Source of the DNA: Vicinamibacterales bacterium
Lineage (GTDB): Bacteria; Acidobacteriota; Vicinamibacteria; Vicinamibacterales; CAVVIG01
Reading direction: 5' to 3'
Length of the DNA: 53,972 nucleotides
Assembly (NCBI GenBank): GCA_036497895.1
Contig: DASXIR010000088.1
Location: forward strand, 1-53,972
Both the position numbers and the translations under genes were made by a program. A model generated the notes under the pieces. The model saw only the letters and a list, made by a program, of their open reading frames with translations. It made no database searches and was not told the origin of the DNA. This document shows, piece by piece, positions 16,558 to 23,547 of the stretch (positions within the stretch are counted from its first letter, which is position 1; each line of letters starts with the position of its first letter).

Positions 16558-17697
16558 ATGACGATGAGAGCCCTGGTGGTTCCGACGGCGTTGCTCGCGG
16601 TGGCGACGGGCATGTCCACCCTTCTGGCGCAGAATCGCGCGGTGGTCTCGGGTCCGGTTGGACCCAGTCCGTATGACGTCATCCGCGGATGGCACAAGCC
16701 GTTCGCCCCTCCAGGATTTGCGTTCGGCGGCAACTCGGGTGTGTTTGCCGAGTCGCCCAACCGTATTTTCGTGGCGCAGCGCGGCGAAACCAGGCTTCCG
16801 GACCCGATCCCTCCGGCGTTTGCCGGCTTTGCCGGATCGATCGGGATCAACGTGCTCAATGCCACCGAACGGCGGGTCTGGCACGACTGCCTCTACACAC
16901 TCGACGGTGACGGCAACGTCAAGGAACGATGGACCCAGTGGGATTCCCTGTGCGAGGGCTCGAGTGGGCCTGGCCCCCATCGTCTGCGCATCAGTCCCTA
17001 CGATCCGGAACATCGGGTCTGGGTCGTCAACGAGACGTTCCATCAGATCTACGTCTTTTCCAACGACGGCAAGAAACTGCTGAAGACGCTCGGCGAGAAG
17101 AACGTCCCTGGCAAGGACGGCACCCATTTCGCCCGTCCGCAGGACGTCGCGTTTCTGCCGGACGGCCGCATCCTGATCGCGGACGGTCTCGACAACCATC
17201 GCGTGATGATCATGGATCGCGACGCGAACTACCTGGCTGAGTTCGGCGGTTTCGGCAAGGGGCCGGGACAGTTCAACGGCGTCCACGCGATCGCAGTGGG
17301 GCCGGGCGGGCTGATTTACGCGCTGGATCGGTCGGGTGGGCGCATCAACGTGTTCAAGACCACGCCGGATCCCAGGAAGGTGGACTTTGTTGAAGAGTGG
17401 GGCGGTTTTCAGCTGCCGCTCGACATCATCGTCAACCAGGACAGCGTGTGGGTGACCGATCTCGGCCCGCTGCGTTTCGTGAAACTCGATTTCAAGGGGA
17501 ACCATCTCTACACCTGGCTGGTTCCGAGCGACCTGCCGGACGGGTACCTCGAGGTCCACACCTTCACCGTGGATTCGAACGGCAACCTGTACGGAGGCGA
17601 CAACCAGTACGGCCGGACGCAGAAGTTCGTGCCGAAGCTTGGCGCGGACCCGGCGCTGCTCGTGCGGCCGCCCTGGACCACAGGGGCCGCCCGGTAG
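16558..17697 (+). CDS. NHL-repeat / six-bladed beta-propeller protein with signal peptide
   Basis: 379 aa. The signal-like N-terminus is MTMRALVVPTALLAVATGMSTLLAQ. Blade motifs repeat (RVWVVNETFHQIYVF, ILIADGLDNHRVMIMD, LIYALDRSGGRINVF, VWVTDLG). A TAGAAT lies 6 nt before the ATG. Confidence 0.7.
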   Translation: MTMRALVVPTALLAVATGMSTLLAQNRAVVSGPVGPSPYDVIRGWHKPFAPPGFAFGGNSGVFAESPNRIFVAQRGETRLPDPIPPAFAGFAGSIGINVLNATERRVWHDCLYTLDGDGNVKERWTQWDSLCEGSSGPGPHRLRISPYDPEHRVWVVNETFHQIYVFSNDGKKLLKTLGEKNVPGKDGTHFARPQDVAFLPDGRILIADGLDNHRVMIMDRDANYLAEFGGFGKGPGQFNGVHAIAVGPGGLIYALDRSGGRINVFKTTPDPRKVDFVEEWGGFQLPLDIIVNQDSVWVTDLGPLRFVKLDFKGNHLYTWLVPSDLPDGYLEVHTFTVDSNGNLYGGDNQYGRTQKFVPKLGADPALLVRPPWTTGAAR

Positions 17698-17781
17698 ATC
17701 GCGTCAGACTCGCCCCGCGTCATCCTTGCTGATTCGCGCCGGTCGTTGGCTATAATCCCACCGACGCACAAGGAGACTCAC

Positions 17782-18963
17782 ATGTCACAGGATTCTCGGT
17801 CTCTGGCCTGGACGCGGCGGGAAATGCTCAGCATGTTGGGCCTCGGCGCCTGCGCGACCGCGCTGCCGAAGCTGGCCGGGGCCGCGACGCCGACGTTTCC
17901 CAAGGGCGCAGTCATCCGGACGATTCTCAAGGATTACGCGCCTGAAGAACTGGCGGGCGGCGCGACCCTGTTTCACGAACACCTGACGTTCGCGCCGGAT
18001 TTCATGACCCGCTGGGTCGGTTACGCCGCCGAGACGAGGGCGGCGAACGGGCCGCCGCCAGGCGCGGCCGGCGGCGGCAGAGCCGGTGCTGCCGGCGCCG
18101 CGGGCGGGGCGGGCGCAGCTGGTCGCGGCGCAACGCCGCCTCCGGCGCCTCCCGGGCCATTCTTCATGCAGGACCTCGACCTGATGTCCGAGGAGATGAC
18201 CATCGCCAAGAGCGAGGGGATCGCCTGCGTGGTCGACGGCGGTCATCCCGACATGGGCCGCGACATCAACTTTCTTCGGCAACTCTCGACCAAGTCGGGG
18301 ATGCCGATCGTCGCCGGCGCCGGTTTCTACACGCAGCCGTTCTATCCGAAAGAGATCTCGACGATGAGCGAGGAGCAGATCGCTCAGGCGCTGATCAAGC
18401 AGGTCGAGACCGATCCAGTGGGTGTTTTCGGAGAAATCGGATCGTGGGACGATATCAGCGCAGACGAGCGCAAAGTGTTTCGCGCAATCGGCAAGGCGCA
18501 CCTGGCGACCAACCTGTCGATTTTCACGCACACCGGCATCCCTGGAAAGTCGGCGCTCGAGCAACTGGATCTGCTCGAAGACGCCGGCGTGAAGCCGAAC
18601 CGCATCGTCATCGGTCATCTCGGCAATCTGGTCGATGCGAACGTACAGGTGCAGAAGGCGATCTGCCGTCGCGGCGCGTTCATCGGCTTCGACCGTCAGG
18701 GCGGTCCCGGCGATGCGCAGCAGGTCCCGATGGTGATGGCGCTGATCGAGGCCGGATTCGCCGACCACCTGATGTTTTCCGCTGACATCTCGAACGCGGG
18801 GCAAATGAAGCGCAACGGCGGCCAGGGCTATGCGAAGACCTTGACCGTGTTCGTTCCGAAGCTGAAGGCAGCGGGCGCGAGCGACGAAGTGTTGCACGGC
18901 ATCATGGTCGACAATCCGCGAAGGTTTCTGGCGTTCGTGCCGAAGAAGCCGCGTAAGGCGTAG
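17782..18963 (+). CDS. phosphotriesterase (PTE/aryldialkylphosphatase) family hydrolase with twin-arginine signal
   Basis: The ATG at 17782 is preceded by AAGGAG (17770-17775). It has the Tat-like WTRREMLSMLGLGACATAL, the HxH metal motif (LFHEHL) and PTE blocks (IFTHTG, VIGHLG, MFSAD). A Gly/Ala/Pro-rich insertion follows the HxH strand. Confidence 0.8.
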   Translation: MSQDSRSLAWTRREMLSMLGLGACATALPKLAGAATPTFPKGAVIRTILKDYAPEELAGGATLFHEHLTFAPDFMTRWVGYAAETRAANGPPPGAAGGGRAGAAGAAGGAGAAGRGATPPPAPPGPFFMQDLDLMSEEMTIAKSEGIACVVDGGHPDMGRDINFLRQLSTKSGMPIVAGAGFYTQPFYPKEISTMSEEQIAQALIKQVETDPVGVFGEIGSWDDISADERKVFRAIGKAHLATNLSIFTHTGIPGKSALEQLDLLEDAGVKPNRIVIGHLGNLVDANVQVQKAICRRGAFIGFDRQGGPGDAQQVPMVMALIEAGFADHLMFSADISNAGQMKRNGGQGYAKTLTVFVPKLKAAGASDEVLHGIMVDNPRRFLAFVPKKPRKA

Positions 18964-19391: not shown

Positions 19392-21368
19392 GTGAGTGAA
19401 TCAACCAAGGCCGAGCGGTTGTCGCGGCGCAGGTTTCTGGCGAAGTCTGCAATTGGGGCAGGAGCGGCCGCTGCGCTCACGACCGGCGCTGCGTCGATTG
19501 CCGCCGGCGAGGCGGCGCCCGCCGACGCGAGCGACGCGGCTTCCAACATGCTGCCCATTCGCGTGGCAGATCAATTCACCAAGTCGATCAACGAAGCGCC
19601 AATCGCGTTCGAGTTCGGCGAGAAGGGGCTGACCGGCGCCGAAGTATTCGCCCGTGTCTGCAAGCGGGAAGGGCTGGCCGCTCTGTTCTGCTGTCCCGGC
19701 AACTACACGATGATCAACGCGATCTCCGCCACCGGCATTCCCGCCTACGGTGGTCGGGTCGAAGACATCATGTGCGCGGCCGCGGACGGGTTCTCGCGCG
19801 TCACCGGCGAGGTGGTTGCCACGTCCGGAACCGAAGGACCCGGCTTCGCGAACATGATCATGTCGATCGCCAGCGCGAATCGCGCCCACACGCCGCTGCT
19901 GGTCCTGGCGAGCAATATGGCGATGTCGAACGAAGACCGGGTCGGCGGCATCCAGCAGATGTATCAGCAGGCGACCACTGAGGGCATCCGCAAGTACGGC
20001 AAGCGCATCACGATTCCGAACCGCATCAACGAATACGCGCAAACCGCTTTTCGCGAGTTGAAGAGCGGCGTTCCCGGCGTCGTGCACCTCGACTTCCCGT
20101 CGGAAGTCCACGGCGCACGCTTCAAGGACCCGTCCGAGTTGAAGGACTACTGGGAGGTCGGGAAGTATCGCAGCGACTGCGTGGCGCACCCGTCCGCGAA
20201 GGACATCACCGCGGCGGTGGACCTGATTCAGAAGGCGGAGCGGCCGATGATCGTAGCCGGCCAGGGAGTCTTTCAGCACAAGGGTTGGGAAGCACTGAAG
20301 CGGACCGCCGAAAAGAACGACATCGCCGTGGTCGAGTCCGGACCGGTGCGCGGACATTTCGGCGACGACCATCGGCTGTCCGCGAACCTCGCCTCGGATG
20401 CGCTCGGCAGCGCCGACCTCGTGATCTTCGTCGGACAGTATCTGATGCCGAACGTCGGCGAGTACCGCTTCAACCCTGACGTGAAGGCGATCCGCGTCCA
20501 CCCGGTCGCTGAGGATCTCGGCCGCAACTGGCCGCTCGATCTCGGTCTCGTGTCCGACGAAAAAGCCGCGCTCGAAGCACTGGCGGACGCTTTGCCGAAG
20601 CGCCAGCGCGCGGCGTGGGTCGCCGAACTCGCGGCGGCGCGGAAGAAGTTCGAAGAGGTAAACGACGAGTACTACGCGCTCGGGCTCAAATACAGCCAGC
20701 AGACGGGTGTGGTGCATCCGGCGGTCATCGGCAAAGTGCTGGCCGATTTTCTCTACAAGGGCGATATCCCGAAAGAGCAAACGACGTTCGCCCAGGGTGG
20801 CTGGACTGGTGCGTCGTGGACGCGGCGATGGCTGCGCGCGTATCGACCGGGCCAGATGAACAACTGCCCATATCAGTACTACCCGATCGGTCCAGATGTG
20901 GGCCATCTGCTCGGCGCCGGCGCAGCGATGCAACTGGGCACCGGACCGCAGAAGGCATATCAGGGCGCGCCGGTGTTCGGTTTCACCGGCGATGCCGGCA
21001 TCGCCTACTCGGCGATGGAGTTCGACACGCTCACGAAATATAAGATCCCCGCGATCATGACCGTGTACAACAACAACGCGTGGGGCATGATCACGGCGGC
21101 GCAGGGACCACGATCGCATCACATGTATCTGTTCCAGGAAAACCTGCGCTACGACCGTGTCGCCGAGGCCCTGGGCGCACGTGGAGAGTACGTGACGACG
21201 CCCGAGCAGTACAAGGCCGCCCTTGGCCGTGCCTATCAGGCGGCGACGCGGGAAAAGGCCTCGACGCTGATCAACGTGCAATCAAGCCGCGAGTTCCTGT
21301 CGACCCAGGCGTTTCCTCCGGGTACACCGCGGAATCTCGAGCCCGGCATCACCGCCTACATGCACTGA
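19392..21368 (+). CDS. thiamine-diphosphate-dependent enzyme (acetolactate synthase/benzoylformate decarboxylase-like fold) with twin-arginine signal peptide
   Basis: 658 aa. It has the SRRRFLAKSAIGAGAAAAL Tat motif, an N-terminal Pyr domain (TEGPGFANM...TPLLVLASN) and the ThDP-binding motif GDAGIAYSAMEFDT...TVYNNNAWG. Confidence 0.85.
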   Translation: MSESTKAERLSRRRFLAKSAIGAGAAAALTTGAASIAAGEAAPADASDAASNMLPIRVADQFTKSINEAPIAFEFGEKGLTGAEVFARVCKREGLAALFCCPGNYTMINAISATGIPAYGGRVEDIMCAAADGFSRVTGEVVATSGTEGPGFANMIMSIASANRAHTPLLVLASNMAMSNEDRVGGIQQMYQQATTEGIRKYGKRITIPNRINEYAQTAFRELKSGVPGVVHLDFPSEVHGARFKDPSELKDYWEVGKYRSDCVAHPSAKDITAAVDLIQKAERPMIVAGQGVFQHKGWEALKRTAEKNDIAVVESGPVRGHFGDDHRLSANLASDALGSADLVIFVGQYLMPNVGEYRFNPDVKAIRVHPVAEDLGRNWPLDLGLVSDEKAALEALADALPKRQRAAWVAELAAARKKFEEVNDEYYALGLKYSQQTGVVHPAVIGKVLADFLYKGDIPKEQTTFAQGGWTGASWTRRWLRAYRPGQMNNCPYQYYPIGPDVGHLLGAGAAMQLGTGPQKAYQGAPVFGFTGDAGIAYSAMEFDTLTKYKIPAIMTVYNNNAWGMITAAQGPRSHHMYLFQENLRYDRVAEALGARGEYVTTPEQYKAALGRAYQAATREKASTLINVQSSREFLSTQAFPPGTPRNLEPGITAYMH

Positions 21369-21371
21369 CGC

Positions 21372-21857
21372 GTGGCAAAGCCGGACGAGACAGCGCTCGT
21401 GCTTGCGGCCTTTCAGCACTATGCCGCCCGCGGCAGCTTCCGCAGCCTGACGGCCGAGGGCGTCGGCGCCAGGACTGAACTGCGTTTCACCTGGCTGCGC
21501 GACGTCGCGTGCCGCGTTGTCTTCGACGCGACCAGCCGCACGCTGACGTTCGTCGAGCTGCTGCCGGCGATCGGCCGCGGATCGCCGATGGACCGGGCCC
21601 TTCGCGCCTTCGTGAAGCGTCACACCAGTCCCGACGTGCCGGTGCATCGTCGCGTCGATCCGAGGCGCGTCAAGGTGACGGTCGTCAATCGCGGCGGCGC
21701 CGCATCGATCGCCTTTGCGTTCAAGACCAGGGAGGTCGGCTACGCAGTTCAGAAGGCCGTCCACCTCGTCCACGACGTCCTTCAGGACTTCCTGAACGAC
21801 GGACGGTACCTGGAGTACTGCGTCGATCACTTCAATCTGAATCCGGAGATGGCGTGA
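21372..21857 (+). CDS. hypothetical protein (no signal peptide), translationally linked to the ThDP enzyme gene
   Basis: 161-aa ORF with protein-like composition. It starts 3 nt after the upstream stop, and its stop overlaps the next start as GTGA. I recognise no family. Confidence 0.5.
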   Translation: MAKPDETALVLAAFQHYAARGSFRSLTAEGVGARTELRFTWLRDVACRVVFDATSRTLTFVELLPAIGRGSPMDRALRAFVKRHTSPDVPVHRRVDPRRVKVTVVNRGGAASIAFAFKTREVGYAVQKAVHLVHDVLQDFLNDGRYLEYCVDHFNLNPEMA

Positions 21858-22324
21858 GCCGCTTTCGCTGGACCAGCGCGCACGGGAGCATCCTGGTGCT
21901 GACGGCGGTGCTGGTCGCGAATCTGGCACATGCCCAGCCGCCGTCCGCTGCACGTCGCTCGTTGAGTGATGGCCTCTATACGTCGATACAGGCGGATCGC
22001 GGGCAGGTTGCCTACACGGCGCATTGCGCCGAGTGCCACATGGCCGATCTCGGTGGCCACGAGTACGCGGGTCCGCTGGCAGGTGAGGGGTTCCAGTTGA
22101 AGTGGCAGGATGCGAGCCTCTCTGAGTTTCTTGGACGAATTCGGAGCATGCCGCTCGGACGGCCCGGCACACTCACGACCCAGGAGTACCTGGACATCCT
22201 CGCGTATGCGCTGCAGAAGAACGGTTACCCGGAGGGCTCCAGCGAGTTGACGCTGCCGCTGGTGACCCAATGGCCGCTGGTGCGAATTGAACGCGTGCGA
22301 CGAACAACTGGCGTCGCGCCTTAG
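21854..22324 (+). CDS. c-type cytochrome (monohaem) with signal peptide
   Basis: This is the GTG at 21854 within the frame of ORF 21509..22324. It has the signal-like VSRFRWTSAHGSILVLTAVLVANLAHA, a CAECH haem motif and a SMPLG distal-ligand region. Confidence 0.7.
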   Translation: MSRFRWTSAHGSILVLTAVLVANLAHAQPPSAARRSLSDGLYTSIQADRGQVAYTAHCAECHMADLGGHEYAGPLAGEGFQLKWQDASLSEFLGRIRSMPLGRPGTLTTQEYLDILAYALQKNGYPEGSSELTLPLVTQWPLVRIERVRRTTGVAP

Positions 22325-22335
22325 ACGAGGCTGAC

Positions 22336-23223
22336 ATGAGACTTCACGTGCGTGTGCTGGCGGCGACAATCGCGGCGGCGTGGATGTTGTCGGCGATCGG
22401 TCGGGCCGAGGCGCCTCAGAATGCCCCGGGCGCGAAGAAGCTGCTGTTTCTGACCCACGCGGCGCTCTACAAACATTCGAGCCTCGAGCCGGCGGAAACC
22501 GCGGTCACGGCCTGGGGCAAGACGGCTGGGTTCGACGTGACCACGCTCCAGGGCTACAAGCAGGAATCACGCAGCCTCGATCTGTCGTTTCTGACGCCCG
22601 AATACCTGAACTCGTTCGACGGCCTGATGCTGATGACCAACGGCAACCTGCCGCTGACGCCCGCGCAGCGGCAGGCGATCGTGGACTTCGTCAAGAGCGG
22701 CAAAGCGCTGATTGGCGTCCACTGCGCCACGCTCACGCTGTACGACTACCCCGAGTTTGGCGAAGTGCTTGGCGGCTACTACCTGCGGTCGCTGGTGCCG
22801 ACCGACATGATCGCCAAAGGCAAGATCGGCGTGTTGAAAGTGGAGGATACCAACCACCCGGCGACGCGCATGCTCGGCCCGAGCTGGCCGCTCAACGAGG
22901 AGTTCTACGAGTTTGGCCACGCTGTGTGGGACGCCGGCAAGCCAACCGAAAATGTGTCCGCGGTCGGCCGTCTGCACATCCAGATGCCGTTCACGCGCGA
23001 TCGCGTGCACGTCCTCCTCAGCCTCGATACCGACAAGACCGATCTGTCGGATCTTCCGAACGTTCCCAAGGGTGACTATCCGCAGTCCTGGACGCACACG
23101 TCCGGACGGGGCCGGACGTTCTACACGACGCTCGGACACCGCGACGACATCTGGGCGCACGACGCCGTCTTCAAGGCCCACGTCACCGGCGGCATCCGGT
23201 GGGCGCTGGGCCTGGAGAACTGA
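22336..23223 (+). CDS. ThuA-domain protein with signal peptide
   Basis: 295 aa. The signal peptide is followed by ThuA blocks (LLFLTHAALYKHSS, GVHCAT, WTHTSGRGRTFYTTLGHRDDIW). Confidence 0.8.
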   Translation: MRLHVRVLAATIAAAWMLSAIGRAEAPQNAPGAKKLLFLTHAALYKHSSLEPAETAVTAWGKTAGFDVTTLQGYKQESRSLDLSFLTPEYLNSFDGLMLMTNGNLPLTPAQRQAIVDFVKSGKALIGVHCATLTLYDYPEFGEVLGGYYLRSLVPTDMIAKGKIGVLKVEDTNHPATRMLGPSWPLNEEFYEFGHAVWDAGKPTENVSAVGRLHIQMPFTRDRVHVLLSLDTDKTDLSDLPNVPKGDYPQSWTHTSGRGRTFYTTLGHRDDIWAHDAVFKAHVTGGIRWALGLEN

Positions 23224-23334
23224 ATGTCGTCCCGCGTTTCAGAAGCATCTGAACATGCCGGTCGGAGGACGGGGTGGCGCTGCCGCACCGGCGCGGACCG
23301 AAGCCAACTGCCGCGTCGAACGAGGTCCGGACAA

Positions 23335-23547
23335 ATGAACCAGAGCGAGACGCCACTTGCCGACACCCGCGGTCACCTGACGGATCACTATGGCCCGCGT
23401 GTCGCGGAGCTGGATCCCTGGATCGCGAAGCTGCGCGCGGAAGGCGTGCGCTTTCTGGGCGATCCGTATAAGGTCGGCAGCTACCGGGCGGTGATGATCG
23501 AAGGCCCGAGCCGCGAGGCGATCGAGCTGATCGAGATCGCGCCGTAG
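23335..23547 (+). CDS. single-module VOC/glyoxalase-like fragment (possibly a gene remnant)
   Basis: 70 aa. DHYGPRVAELDPWIAKLRAEGVRFLGDPYKVGSYRAVMIEGPSREAIELIE resembles one beta-alpha-beta-beta-beta VOC module. A full domain needs two. Confidence 0.4.
   Translation: MNQSETPLADTRGHLTDHYGPRVAELDPWIAKLRAEGVRFLGDPYKVGSYRAVMIEGPSREAIELIEIAP

Follow-up and report, generated by a model that had tools for sequence, protein, structure and literature searches.

Enzymes that oxidise a hydroxyalkyl intermediate on thiamine diphosphate (ThDP) and hand the electrons to an external acceptor are represented by pyruvate oxidase (POX) and PoxB, the pyruvate:quinone oxidoreductase formerly named 'pyruvate dehydrogenase (cytochrome)'. 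Both need flavin adenine dinucleotide (FAD), and both are cytoplasmic or peripherally bound to the inner face of the membrane. To our knowledge, all characterised ThDP enzymes of the POX/ALS/BFD-type superfamily reside in the cytoplasm, on the cytoplasmic face of the membrane or in organelles, and we know of no list of cofactors of twin-arginine translocation (Tat) substrates that includes ThDP. A full-text literature search for ThDP enzymes, acetolactate synthase included, in connection with Tat or the periplasm yielded no paper on a periplasmic or Tat-dependent ThDP enzyme. Here we describe a candidate for such an enzyme. It is encoded in a 53,972-nt stretch of DNA from a Vicinamibacterales bacterium (Acidobacteriota; assembly GCA_036497895.1, contig DASXIR010000088.1, positions 1 to 53,972; in the following 'the window'), on the forward strand between the genes for a small cytochrome c and for a helper protein of 161 residues (Table 1). 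Its signal, the cytochrome and the helper together suggest that an enzyme system for oxidation, so far undescribed, operates outside the cytoplasm.

A comparable operon logic is known from torCAD-type operons (TorC being a cytochrome c, TorA the Tat enzyme and TorD its chaperone) and from flavocytochrome c dehydrogenases. There, as would be the case here by analogy, a Tat enzyme that is loaded with its cofactor in the cytoplasm is accompanied by a dedicated c-type cytochrome and by a small enzyme-binding protein that has no signal. The cofactor of these systems is, however, molybdopterin or flavin, whereas it would be ThDP in the window.

The reading frame of the ThDP enzyme starts with the GTG at position 19392, which is preceded at a distance of 6 nt by the Shine-Dalgarno sequence AGGGAG, and it stays open over all 658 codons. 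Residues 11-18 read SRRRFLAK (codons 19422-19445), exactly where a twin-arginine signal had been seen in the initial annotation of this DNA, and are followed by an Ala/Gly-rich h-region with AxA-like sites. This arrangement corresponds to the Tat motif (S/T-R-R-x-F-L-K, then a moderately hydrophobic h-region), and it is kept in orthologues. Of 121 homologues from the databases, which share 55-99% identity and almost all measure 640-680 residues, 115 exhibit an RR motif within their first 45 residues, and the six others are either incomplete gene calls or preceded by a longer leader, so that true orthologues lacking the signal, which would have spoken against export, did not turn up. In an alignment of 49 sequences R12 and R13 are invariant. 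As the motif is conserved across homologues, the internal Met53, a downstream start that had to be considered, is ruled out as the true start. In the AlphaFold2 (AF2) model of the enzyme (mean pLDDT 84.9) residues 1-53 are disordered (pLDDT <50), and the structure becomes confident from about residue 60. The source genome encodes two full-length TatC proteins (G000:C17:16297-16932 and G000:C262:9407-10042). With a signal that occurs family-wide and TatC being encoded, the export by Tat that was initially proposed appears well supported on comparative grounds. In four loci from MFD long-read metagenome-assembled genomes (L018, L020, L021 and L022; L numbers denote related loci) the ThDP gene is matched in two to four pieces that lie in different frames, which most likely reflects indel errors of the assemblies and not pseudogenes.

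Behind the signal the protein holds an apparently intact ThDP fold, in line with the initial annotation. The Pfam domains TPP_enzyme_N, TPP_enzyme_M and TPP_enzyme_C all score above their cut-offs (72.6, 77.8 and 67.6 bits). The cofactor-activating Glu is E124, which aligns with the corresponding Glu of Oxc, PoxB and IlvI from E. coli, and the ThDP/Mg2+ motif is present in the form (G/S/T)-D534-A-G...N560-N561-N/D. Among 120 sequences E124, D534, N560 and N561 show no or hardly any variation, and the SGTEGPG block is invariant in the family. By its Pfam domains and its fold (TMt up to 0.85) the protein belongs to the three-domain superfamily of the POX/ALS/BFD type. None of the NCBIfam equivalog cut-offs was reached, the best score being 184 bits against a cut-off of 587. 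The models for Xsc, Oxc, HACL, Gcl, POX and ALS gave 105-170 bits against cut-offs of 450-990 (e.g., Oxc 145 against 557, HACL 135 against 600, and the pyruvate-oxidase models 106-116 against 638-742).

The best sequence matches among proteins of the PDB (1e-41 to 1e-30) are 2-hydroxyacyl-CoA lyase/synthase (here HACL/S; the synthase is abbreviated HACS), oxalyl-CoA decarboxylase (OXC), BbmA and benzaldehyde lyase (BAL)/formolase, followed at a distance by POX (E ~1e-18) and PoxB (1e-12). A Foldseek search likewise placed benzaldehyde lyase at the top (2uz1; E 3e-37, TMt 0.85), ahead of HACS and OXC. These lyases and decarboxylases (2UZ1, 4QQ8, 8VZA-8VZK, 6XN8, 7PT1, 2Q27) share the three-domain ThDP fold with the enzyme from the window (Foldseek E 1e-33 to 3e-37, TMt 0.79-0.85), they are flavin-free, as the window enzyme is read to be, and a C-terminal tail serving as a lid of the active site is probably common to all of them. 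Nevertheless, the identity amounts to only 20-26%, and unlike its relatives the window enzyme has a Tat signal, a cytochrome c and a helper as partners and sequence motifs of its own, namely FCCPGNY, TEGPG, YQQ and a terminal His. In a phylogenetic tree 22 members of the family form one clade (hereafter the Tat clade) with a stem of 1.85 changes per site and an SH-aLRT support of 100. This clade is separate from Oxc and from the group of the FAD enzymes PoxB, Gcl, IlvI and ALS (SH-aLRT 97). The references of the tree were E. coli Oxc, PoxB, Gcl, IlvI and MenD together with an ALS-like protein from the same genome, which is the only other TPP_N match encoded there. Because this reference set is small, the placement indicates that the clade is distinct but does not identify its sister group, and its relation to BAL, HACL, Xsc and POX is taken from the profile and fold scores.

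The cytochrome c encoded upstream of the ThDP gene carries the Sec signal MRLALLIAAAVVAAELAPPAQA, a CxxCH motif at residue 50 and the likely Met ligand within the sequence AMPPF. With 59 bits for Cytochrome_CBB3 and 42.9 bits for Cytochrom_C in Pfam, it is a class I c-type cytochrome. A tblastn survey of 26 related loci from Vicinamibacterales, Bryobacterales, Terriglobia and Acidiferrales unveiled two constant neighbours of the ThDP gene in most of them, this cytochrome of 130 residues and the helper of 161 residues. Homologues of the cytochrome adjoin the ThDP gene in 23 of the 26 loci, and in two loci the gene order is shuffled with the three genes still being together (L001 and L017). A scan of metagenomes yielded at least 542 relatives of the ThDP enzyme. 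Where at least 1.2 kb of sequence was available on both sides of the gene, which was the case for 33 loci, both partners were present in 30 and neither of them in three, and no locus contained just one. It is therefore well supported that cytochrome c, ThDP enzyme and helper constitute one functional unit. The link to cytochrome c that had been suggested from the mere vicinity of the genes thus gains from the co-inheritance of the upstream cytochrome with the ThDP enzyme, which persists despite changes in gene order. Two c-type cytochromes had been pointed out, and both were found; however, only the upstream one is part of the conserved unit, as the second one is, among the related loci, confined to L006 and L021, which are close relatives.

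A third and obligatory partner had been left out of the initial account of the neighbourhood. The gene for the helper starts 3 nt past the stop codon of the ThDP gene, and its own stop codon overlaps the start of the next gene (GTGA). A homologue of the ThDP enzyme directly adjoins the helper gene in all 26 of the helper loci that were compared. The helper family comprises 259 clusters at 50% identity, and a profile search found it in 22 of 401 species genomes and in 13 of 228 genera of the Acidobacteriota. No Pfam family could be assigned to any of 85 helper homologues. Some database hits are longer, but these proved to be frameshifted or mis-started and to contain no additional Pfam domain, so that a fused or signal-bearing form of the helper was rejected. 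A regulatory small subunit as in acetohydroxyacid synthase (IlvH/IlvN) was rejected as well, the hhalign probability against E. coli IlvH being 0.1%.

The AF2 model of the helper (pLDDT 95) did not retrieve any structure at E <= 0.001 in Foldseek. In an exhaustive structural comparison (VIA), about twelve chaperones of class I type III secretion systems (T3SSs) and YbjN-family proteins were among the top 27 matches at Z 8.3-6.0, with Spa15, SigE, VecA, InvB and SicP at Z 8.3-6.8; a best score of Z 7-8 is, however, background, i.e., typical for models that have no true match. The predicted order of elements, alpha-beta-beta-beta-alpha-beta-beta-alpha, may resemble that of class I T3SS chaperones and YbjN proteins (Spa15, SigE, VecA, InvB, SicP and SycH; AmyR), yet sequence identities are 4-11%, the Z scores lie at background and a T3SS context is missing. 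Their clients also differ, as a T3SS chaperone binds the extended N-terminus of an effector, whereas the predicted client of the helper is a folded enzyme domain. Regarding maturation proteins of Tat substrates, 85 homologues without any Pfam family, and with TorD, DmsD, NarJ and NapD being absent from the structural matches listed, make a membership in the TorD family less likely, which leaves a TorD-like way of working untouched.

Co-folding of the helper with the full-length ThDP enzyme resulted in an ipSAE of 0.76, against 0.00 for the best of three controls; 58 of 80 solved complexes attain this mark, as do 2 of 110 mismatched pairs. The contacts agreed by at least 91% among the runs, with a pLDDT of the partner of at least 87. 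On the side of the enzyme the predicted contacts involve residues 283-284, 339-342, 355-363, 381 and 412 of the middle domain, residues 566-569 and the C-terminal tail (638-649), and on the side of the helper Y17, R20, G21, residue 42 beside the near-invariant W41, P90, H92, R93 and the helix 127-148. These positions fall on near-invariant residues of both families, and the charges of the two faces are opposite, the enzyme face being acidic (E283, D342, E357, D363 and E412) and the helper face basic. The model supports a binding of the helper to the middle domain and the C-terminal tail of the enzyme. The signal peptide is not contacted by the helper in this model. Therein, with the mature domain and not the signal peptide as its predicted binding site, the helper would differ from TorD, DmsD and NapD, to which it also exhibits no likeness in sequence or fold. 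According to the alignment, the contacted stretches of the enzyme flank a glycine-rich loop and a GQY--MP loop, both of which replace the nucleotide site of the relatives, and in the model the helper appears to sit over this vestigial site and the lid.

The flavin is the point at which the analogy to POX and PoxB, implied in the initial annotation, does not hold. For a comparison of residues, nine members of the Tat clade were aligned with Oxc, PoxB, Gcl and IlvI of E. coli. The insert of 7-9 residues (GMxGxxG) which forms the FAD loop of PoxB, Gcl and IlvI is absent from all nine, the Arg of the SG-R-PG motif is replaced by Val (Val227) in every one of them, and a shorter GQY--MP stands in place of the GARLNW/GxRFxxR loop. 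The Tat clade accordingly has none of the three features of FAD-dependent ThDP enzymes, and the FAD-binding residues of PoxB, Gcl and IlvI, whose inspection had been recommended, are not conserved. Besides lacking this insert and these motifs and branching separately, the Tat-clade enzyme would differ from POX and PoxB in reducing cytochrome c directly. The ligands of other nucleotides appear to be lost, too. In ApbHACL/S, adenosine diphosphate (ADP) is bound by R156 and R276 and acyl-coenzyme A (acyl-CoA) by R260 and R400 (PMC11271303). In HMMER alignments the counterpart of R156 is Val227 throughout the Tat members, that of R276 is Tyr350 or a gap and that of R260 a gap, and R400 could not be aligned. 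As far as they could be aligned, the arginines for CoA and ADP that characterise oxalyl-CoA decarboxylase and 2-hydroxyacyl-CoA lyase are hence not found in the window enzyme. Judged from the alignments, the middle domain probably binds neither FAD nor ADP, and the enzyme probably does not use CoA thioesters. A loss of nucleotide and CoA ligands would fit with a compartment that contains neither nucleotides nor CoA.

Other residues are specific for the family. Four cysteines vary little or not at all in 120 sequences. They are C90, C100 and C101 as a vicinal pair within FCCPGNY (the codons of FCCPGN, residues 99-104, are at 19689-19706 of the window) and C128, located one helical turn after E124. 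Equally conserved are N104-Y105, T147-E148, which stands where the S/T of SGPG is usual, and Q192-Q193. The C-terminus reads ...PGxxAxxH, with His as the final residue in 120 of 120 sequences (codon 21363-21365 of the window). N104-Y105 presumably occupies the motif position that bears catalytic residues in PDC, BFD and BAL; in BAL the probable counterpart by motif position is A28-H29, His29 and Gln113 being catalytic in the enzyme from P. fluorescens. PQQ methanol dehydrogenase, which itself reduces a cytochrome c, contains a disulfide between Cys103 and Cys104. The vicinal Cys-Cys of the window enzyme, which would lie beside the cofactor, recalls this pair.

On balance, we consider it rather probable that the ThDP enzyme is a periplasmic, flavin-free protein that works as a unit with the upstream cytochrome c and the downstream helper, with its intermediate being oxidised directly by the cytochrome. 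The enzyme would fold, dimerise and load ThDP-Mg2+ in the cytoplasm, where loading is placed because the periplasm has no supply of ThDP. Through its conserved residues Y17, R20, G21, P90 and H92-R93-R94 the helper would engage the C-terminal lid and the acidic face that the middle domain presents, acting either as a proofreading or capping chaperone of the Tat pathway that is left behind, or as a signal-less subunit that is exported as a hitch-hiker. After cofactor loading and helper binding the enzyme would leave the cytoplasm by Tat. In the periplasm a small carbonyl compound could give rise to a carbanion/enamine on ThDP; a 2-oxo acid would do so by being decarboxylated, an aldehyde or alpha-hydroxyketone through addition or cleavage. 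As no flavin site is present, a direct oxidation of this intermediate by the dedicated cytochrome c in two one-electron steps is proposed. The acyl-ThDP would then be hydrolysed to the acid, and the electrons would move on to a terminal oxidase. With respect to the hydroxyalkyl-ThDP oxidation and the external acceptor, POX and PoxB provide a functional analogy to this proposed mechanism. At least two chemistries would be in agreement with this, the oxidative decarboxylation that was initially suggested and an oxidation or cleavage of aldehydes or alpha-hydroxyketones.

Several points weigh against this proposal. We know of no precedent in the ThDP superfamily for a direct electron transfer from an enamine to haem, and the nearest solved relatives, BAL, HACL and OXC, catalyse non-redox reactions. 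About one in ten loci is devoid of an adjacent cytochrome or helper (L003, L004, L025, L108, L117 and L132), and because both are missing there the ThDP enzyme may be able to work without an adjacent partner; in the case of L025, the same genome contains a second enzyme-helper pair apart from this 'orphan' copy. The missing flavin site is argued from an alignment with four E. coli enzymes and from a single paper, and export, cofactor content, reduction of the cytochrome and substrate are all points that we infer. Nor does the genomic context fix the substrate, as only the three genes of the unit itself are conserved.

The relationship to non-redox enzymes leads to a different explanation, in which the protein is a periplasmic BAL-like lyase or carboligase acting on alpha-hydroxyketones, 3-keto sugars or diketones, and the cytochrome c serves another periplasmic dehydrogenase of the same pathway. 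We regard this as unlikely, though with a chance that has to be taken seriously. It would agree with the best sequence and fold matches, all of them non-redox (the aforementioned BAL structure 2uz1, HACS, OXC and formolase), with the absence of a flavin site and with those neighbouring genes that make or handle keto compounds, i.e., PQQ-type propellers and dehydrogenases, a 3-keto-disaccharide hydrolase, ThuA and xylose-isomerase-like TIM barrels. It is, however, difficult to reconcile with a cytochrome that is gained and lost jointly with the helper and is the direct neighbour of the ThDP gene at 30 of the 33 loci, when any given dehydrogenase is present in a minority of loci only, and with three genes that stay together where their order is shuffled. 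The assumption that comes closest to the initial annotation, a flavin-dependent oxidative decarboxylase like POX or PoxB, in which an FAD in the middle domain passes the electrons of hydroxyethyl-ThDP to cytochrome c, appears very improbable. POX and PoxB are, as general knowledge, the ThDP enzymes which deliver electrons to an external acceptor; they have the three-domain architecture in common with the window enzyme and are found among its weaker sequence matches. Against this stand the missing GMxGxxG insert, SG-R-PG Arg and GxRFxxR-type loop of the Tat clade, the separate clustering of the FAD enzymes and the scores of the pyruvate-oxidase models far below their cut-offs.

There is also a slim chance that the enzyme is not released to the periplasm at all, its N-terminus being either the relic of a signal on a cytoplasmic enzyme or an uncleaved Tat signal that serves as a membrane anchor. 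The h-region is rich in Ala and Gly without an obvious cleavage site, the helper has no signal peptide, and export is deduced from sequence, all of which would be compatible with retention. Yet RR motif and h-region are kept down to 55% identity (115 of 121 homologues) with both arginines invariant, the partner cytochrome has a Sec signal and needs a periplasmic attachment of its haem, and the CoA- and ADP-binding arginines of cytoplasmic relatives are lost; a membrane-anchored form would, moreover, still face the periplasm. The direct transfer of electrons to cytochrome c from a periplasmic, flavin-free enzyme remains the reading that we prefer.

What emerges is probably a ThDP enzyme in a new compartment and with new partners. 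A more far-reaching version, to which we would give somewhat less than an even chance, holds that it is the first periplasmic ThDP enzyme, its cofactor the first ThDP exported by Tat, and the protein a ThDP:cytochrome c oxidoreductase that is free of flavin and has its ThDP-bound enamine oxidised directly by a dedicated haem c, with the Cys-Cys pair and conserved aromatic residues as possible participants; the helper would represent a new class of Tat chaperones that caps the vestigial nucleotide site and the lid and thereby silences the enzyme until export. If true, ThDP would be a new cofactor class for Tat biology, electrons from small carbonyls such as 2-oxo acids and aldehydes could be fed into respiration by a new route that does not involve their uptake, and ThDP chemistry would be extended by an electron transfer that needs no flavin and no iron-sulfur cluster. 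Being widespread, with at least 542 relatives in metagenomes and its helper in 22 of 401 species of Acidobacteriota, the family could aid carbon turnover in soil. An active site which is free of flavin and CoA and akin to formolase and HACS would also be of interest for biocatalysis.

Table 1. Features of the ThDP enzyme locus (positions within the window) and the evidence on which each assignment is based.
Feature	Position	Strand	Evidence
NHL-repeat six-bladed beta-propeller, Sec-exported, 379 aa; first gene of the same-strand cluster; accessory	16558..17697	+	Pfam NHL and DUF5128
Phosphotriesterase/lactonase-family (PTE) protein; accessory	17746..18963	+	Pfam PTE (9e-50)
Dedicated mono-haem class I cytochrome c, periplasmic, 130 aa	18981..19373	+	Pfam Cytochrome_CBB3 and Cytochrom_C, sequence
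Three-domain ThDP enzyme, predicted to be Tat-exported, 658 aa; uncharacterised clade	19392..21368	+	Pfam, AF2, Foldseek, tree
Twin-arginine signal peptide of the ThDP enzyme, approximately residues 1-41	19392..19514	+	Sequence, RR motif of homologues, low pLDDT
Helper, 161 aa, no signal peptide, no Pfam family	21372..21857	+	Fold comparison, co-folding, neighbourhood
Second mono-haem cytochrome c, Sec-exported, 156 aa, with CxxCH at residue 58; accessory	21854..22324	+	Pfam Cytochrome_CBB3
ThuA-like protein, Sec-exported, 295 aa; accessory	22336..23223	+	Pfam ThuA (3e-35)

Apart from the three-gene unit, no gene is shared across the loci compared. The NHL and PTE genes adjoin the unit only in L005, L006 and L021, and the ThuA gene does so only in L006 and L021, being 6 kb away and on the opposite strand in L018. 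The PTE protein has a Tat-like signal of its own, WTRREMLSMLGLGA, and its translation probably begins at the ATG that forms codon 13 of the open reading frame as listed; past its HxH metal motif it contains a Gly/Ala/Pro-rich insert of about 40 residues. An open reading frame of 107 codons follows the ThuA gene (23224-23547, +); its product has an odd, Arg-rich N-terminus, and its only match is a weak one to a glyoxalase-fold domain, in the C-terminal half of the latter. Only its residues 38-107 are conserved in L006 and L021, and it may be mis-started or a remnant. Downstream of the cluster, sugar-nucleotide genes are encoded on the opposite strand. A scan for promoters and terminators between 15900 and 24300 did not unveil anything above the shuffled expectation.

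Across the related loci some neighbours recur in a lineage-clustered but not universal manner, namely PQQ-type propellers, 3-keto-disaccharide hydrolase, TonB-type outer-membrane proteins, xylose-isomerase-like TIM barrels and DHDPS-family enzymes. Together with ThuA, the lactonase-like PTE protein and the NHL propeller of the window, these accessory genes hint at products of a periplasmic oxidation of sugars, polyols or alcohols. Loci with PQQ-type propellers and other such neighbours are L012, L019, L023, L113, L137, L152 and others of the Bryobacterales type, as well as L025, L117, L119, L120 and L126. The propellers are of two kinds, one of 525 residues with weak PQQ or 'acido-empty-quinoprotein' hits and the other a full PQQ dehydrogenase of 668 residues. 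In four loci of Vicinamibacterales (L017, L062, L064 and L066) genes for a GlcF-like protein (CCG and 4Fe-4S) and an FAD-linked oxidase similar to GlcD/E are located 2-9 kb from the unit; with unrelated genes lying in between they probably represent local synteny, and they were set aside as a clue to the substrate.

One further protein attracted attention by its repeated occurrence. It is about 450-530 residues long, carries a Sec signal, an N-terminal CxxCH (F-T-K-D-V/I-A-P-I-L...C-x-x-C-H-R-P-G) and a His-rich C-terminal domain, and had no sequence match in Pfam, NCBIfam or the PDB. Its gene lies no more than 5 kb from that of the ThDP enzyme and recurs in nine diverse loci, among them L004 (10927-12531, -), L057, L068 (two copies), L078, L115, L122, L132 and L136 (two copies), and two of the nine are loci without the small cytochrome and the helper.

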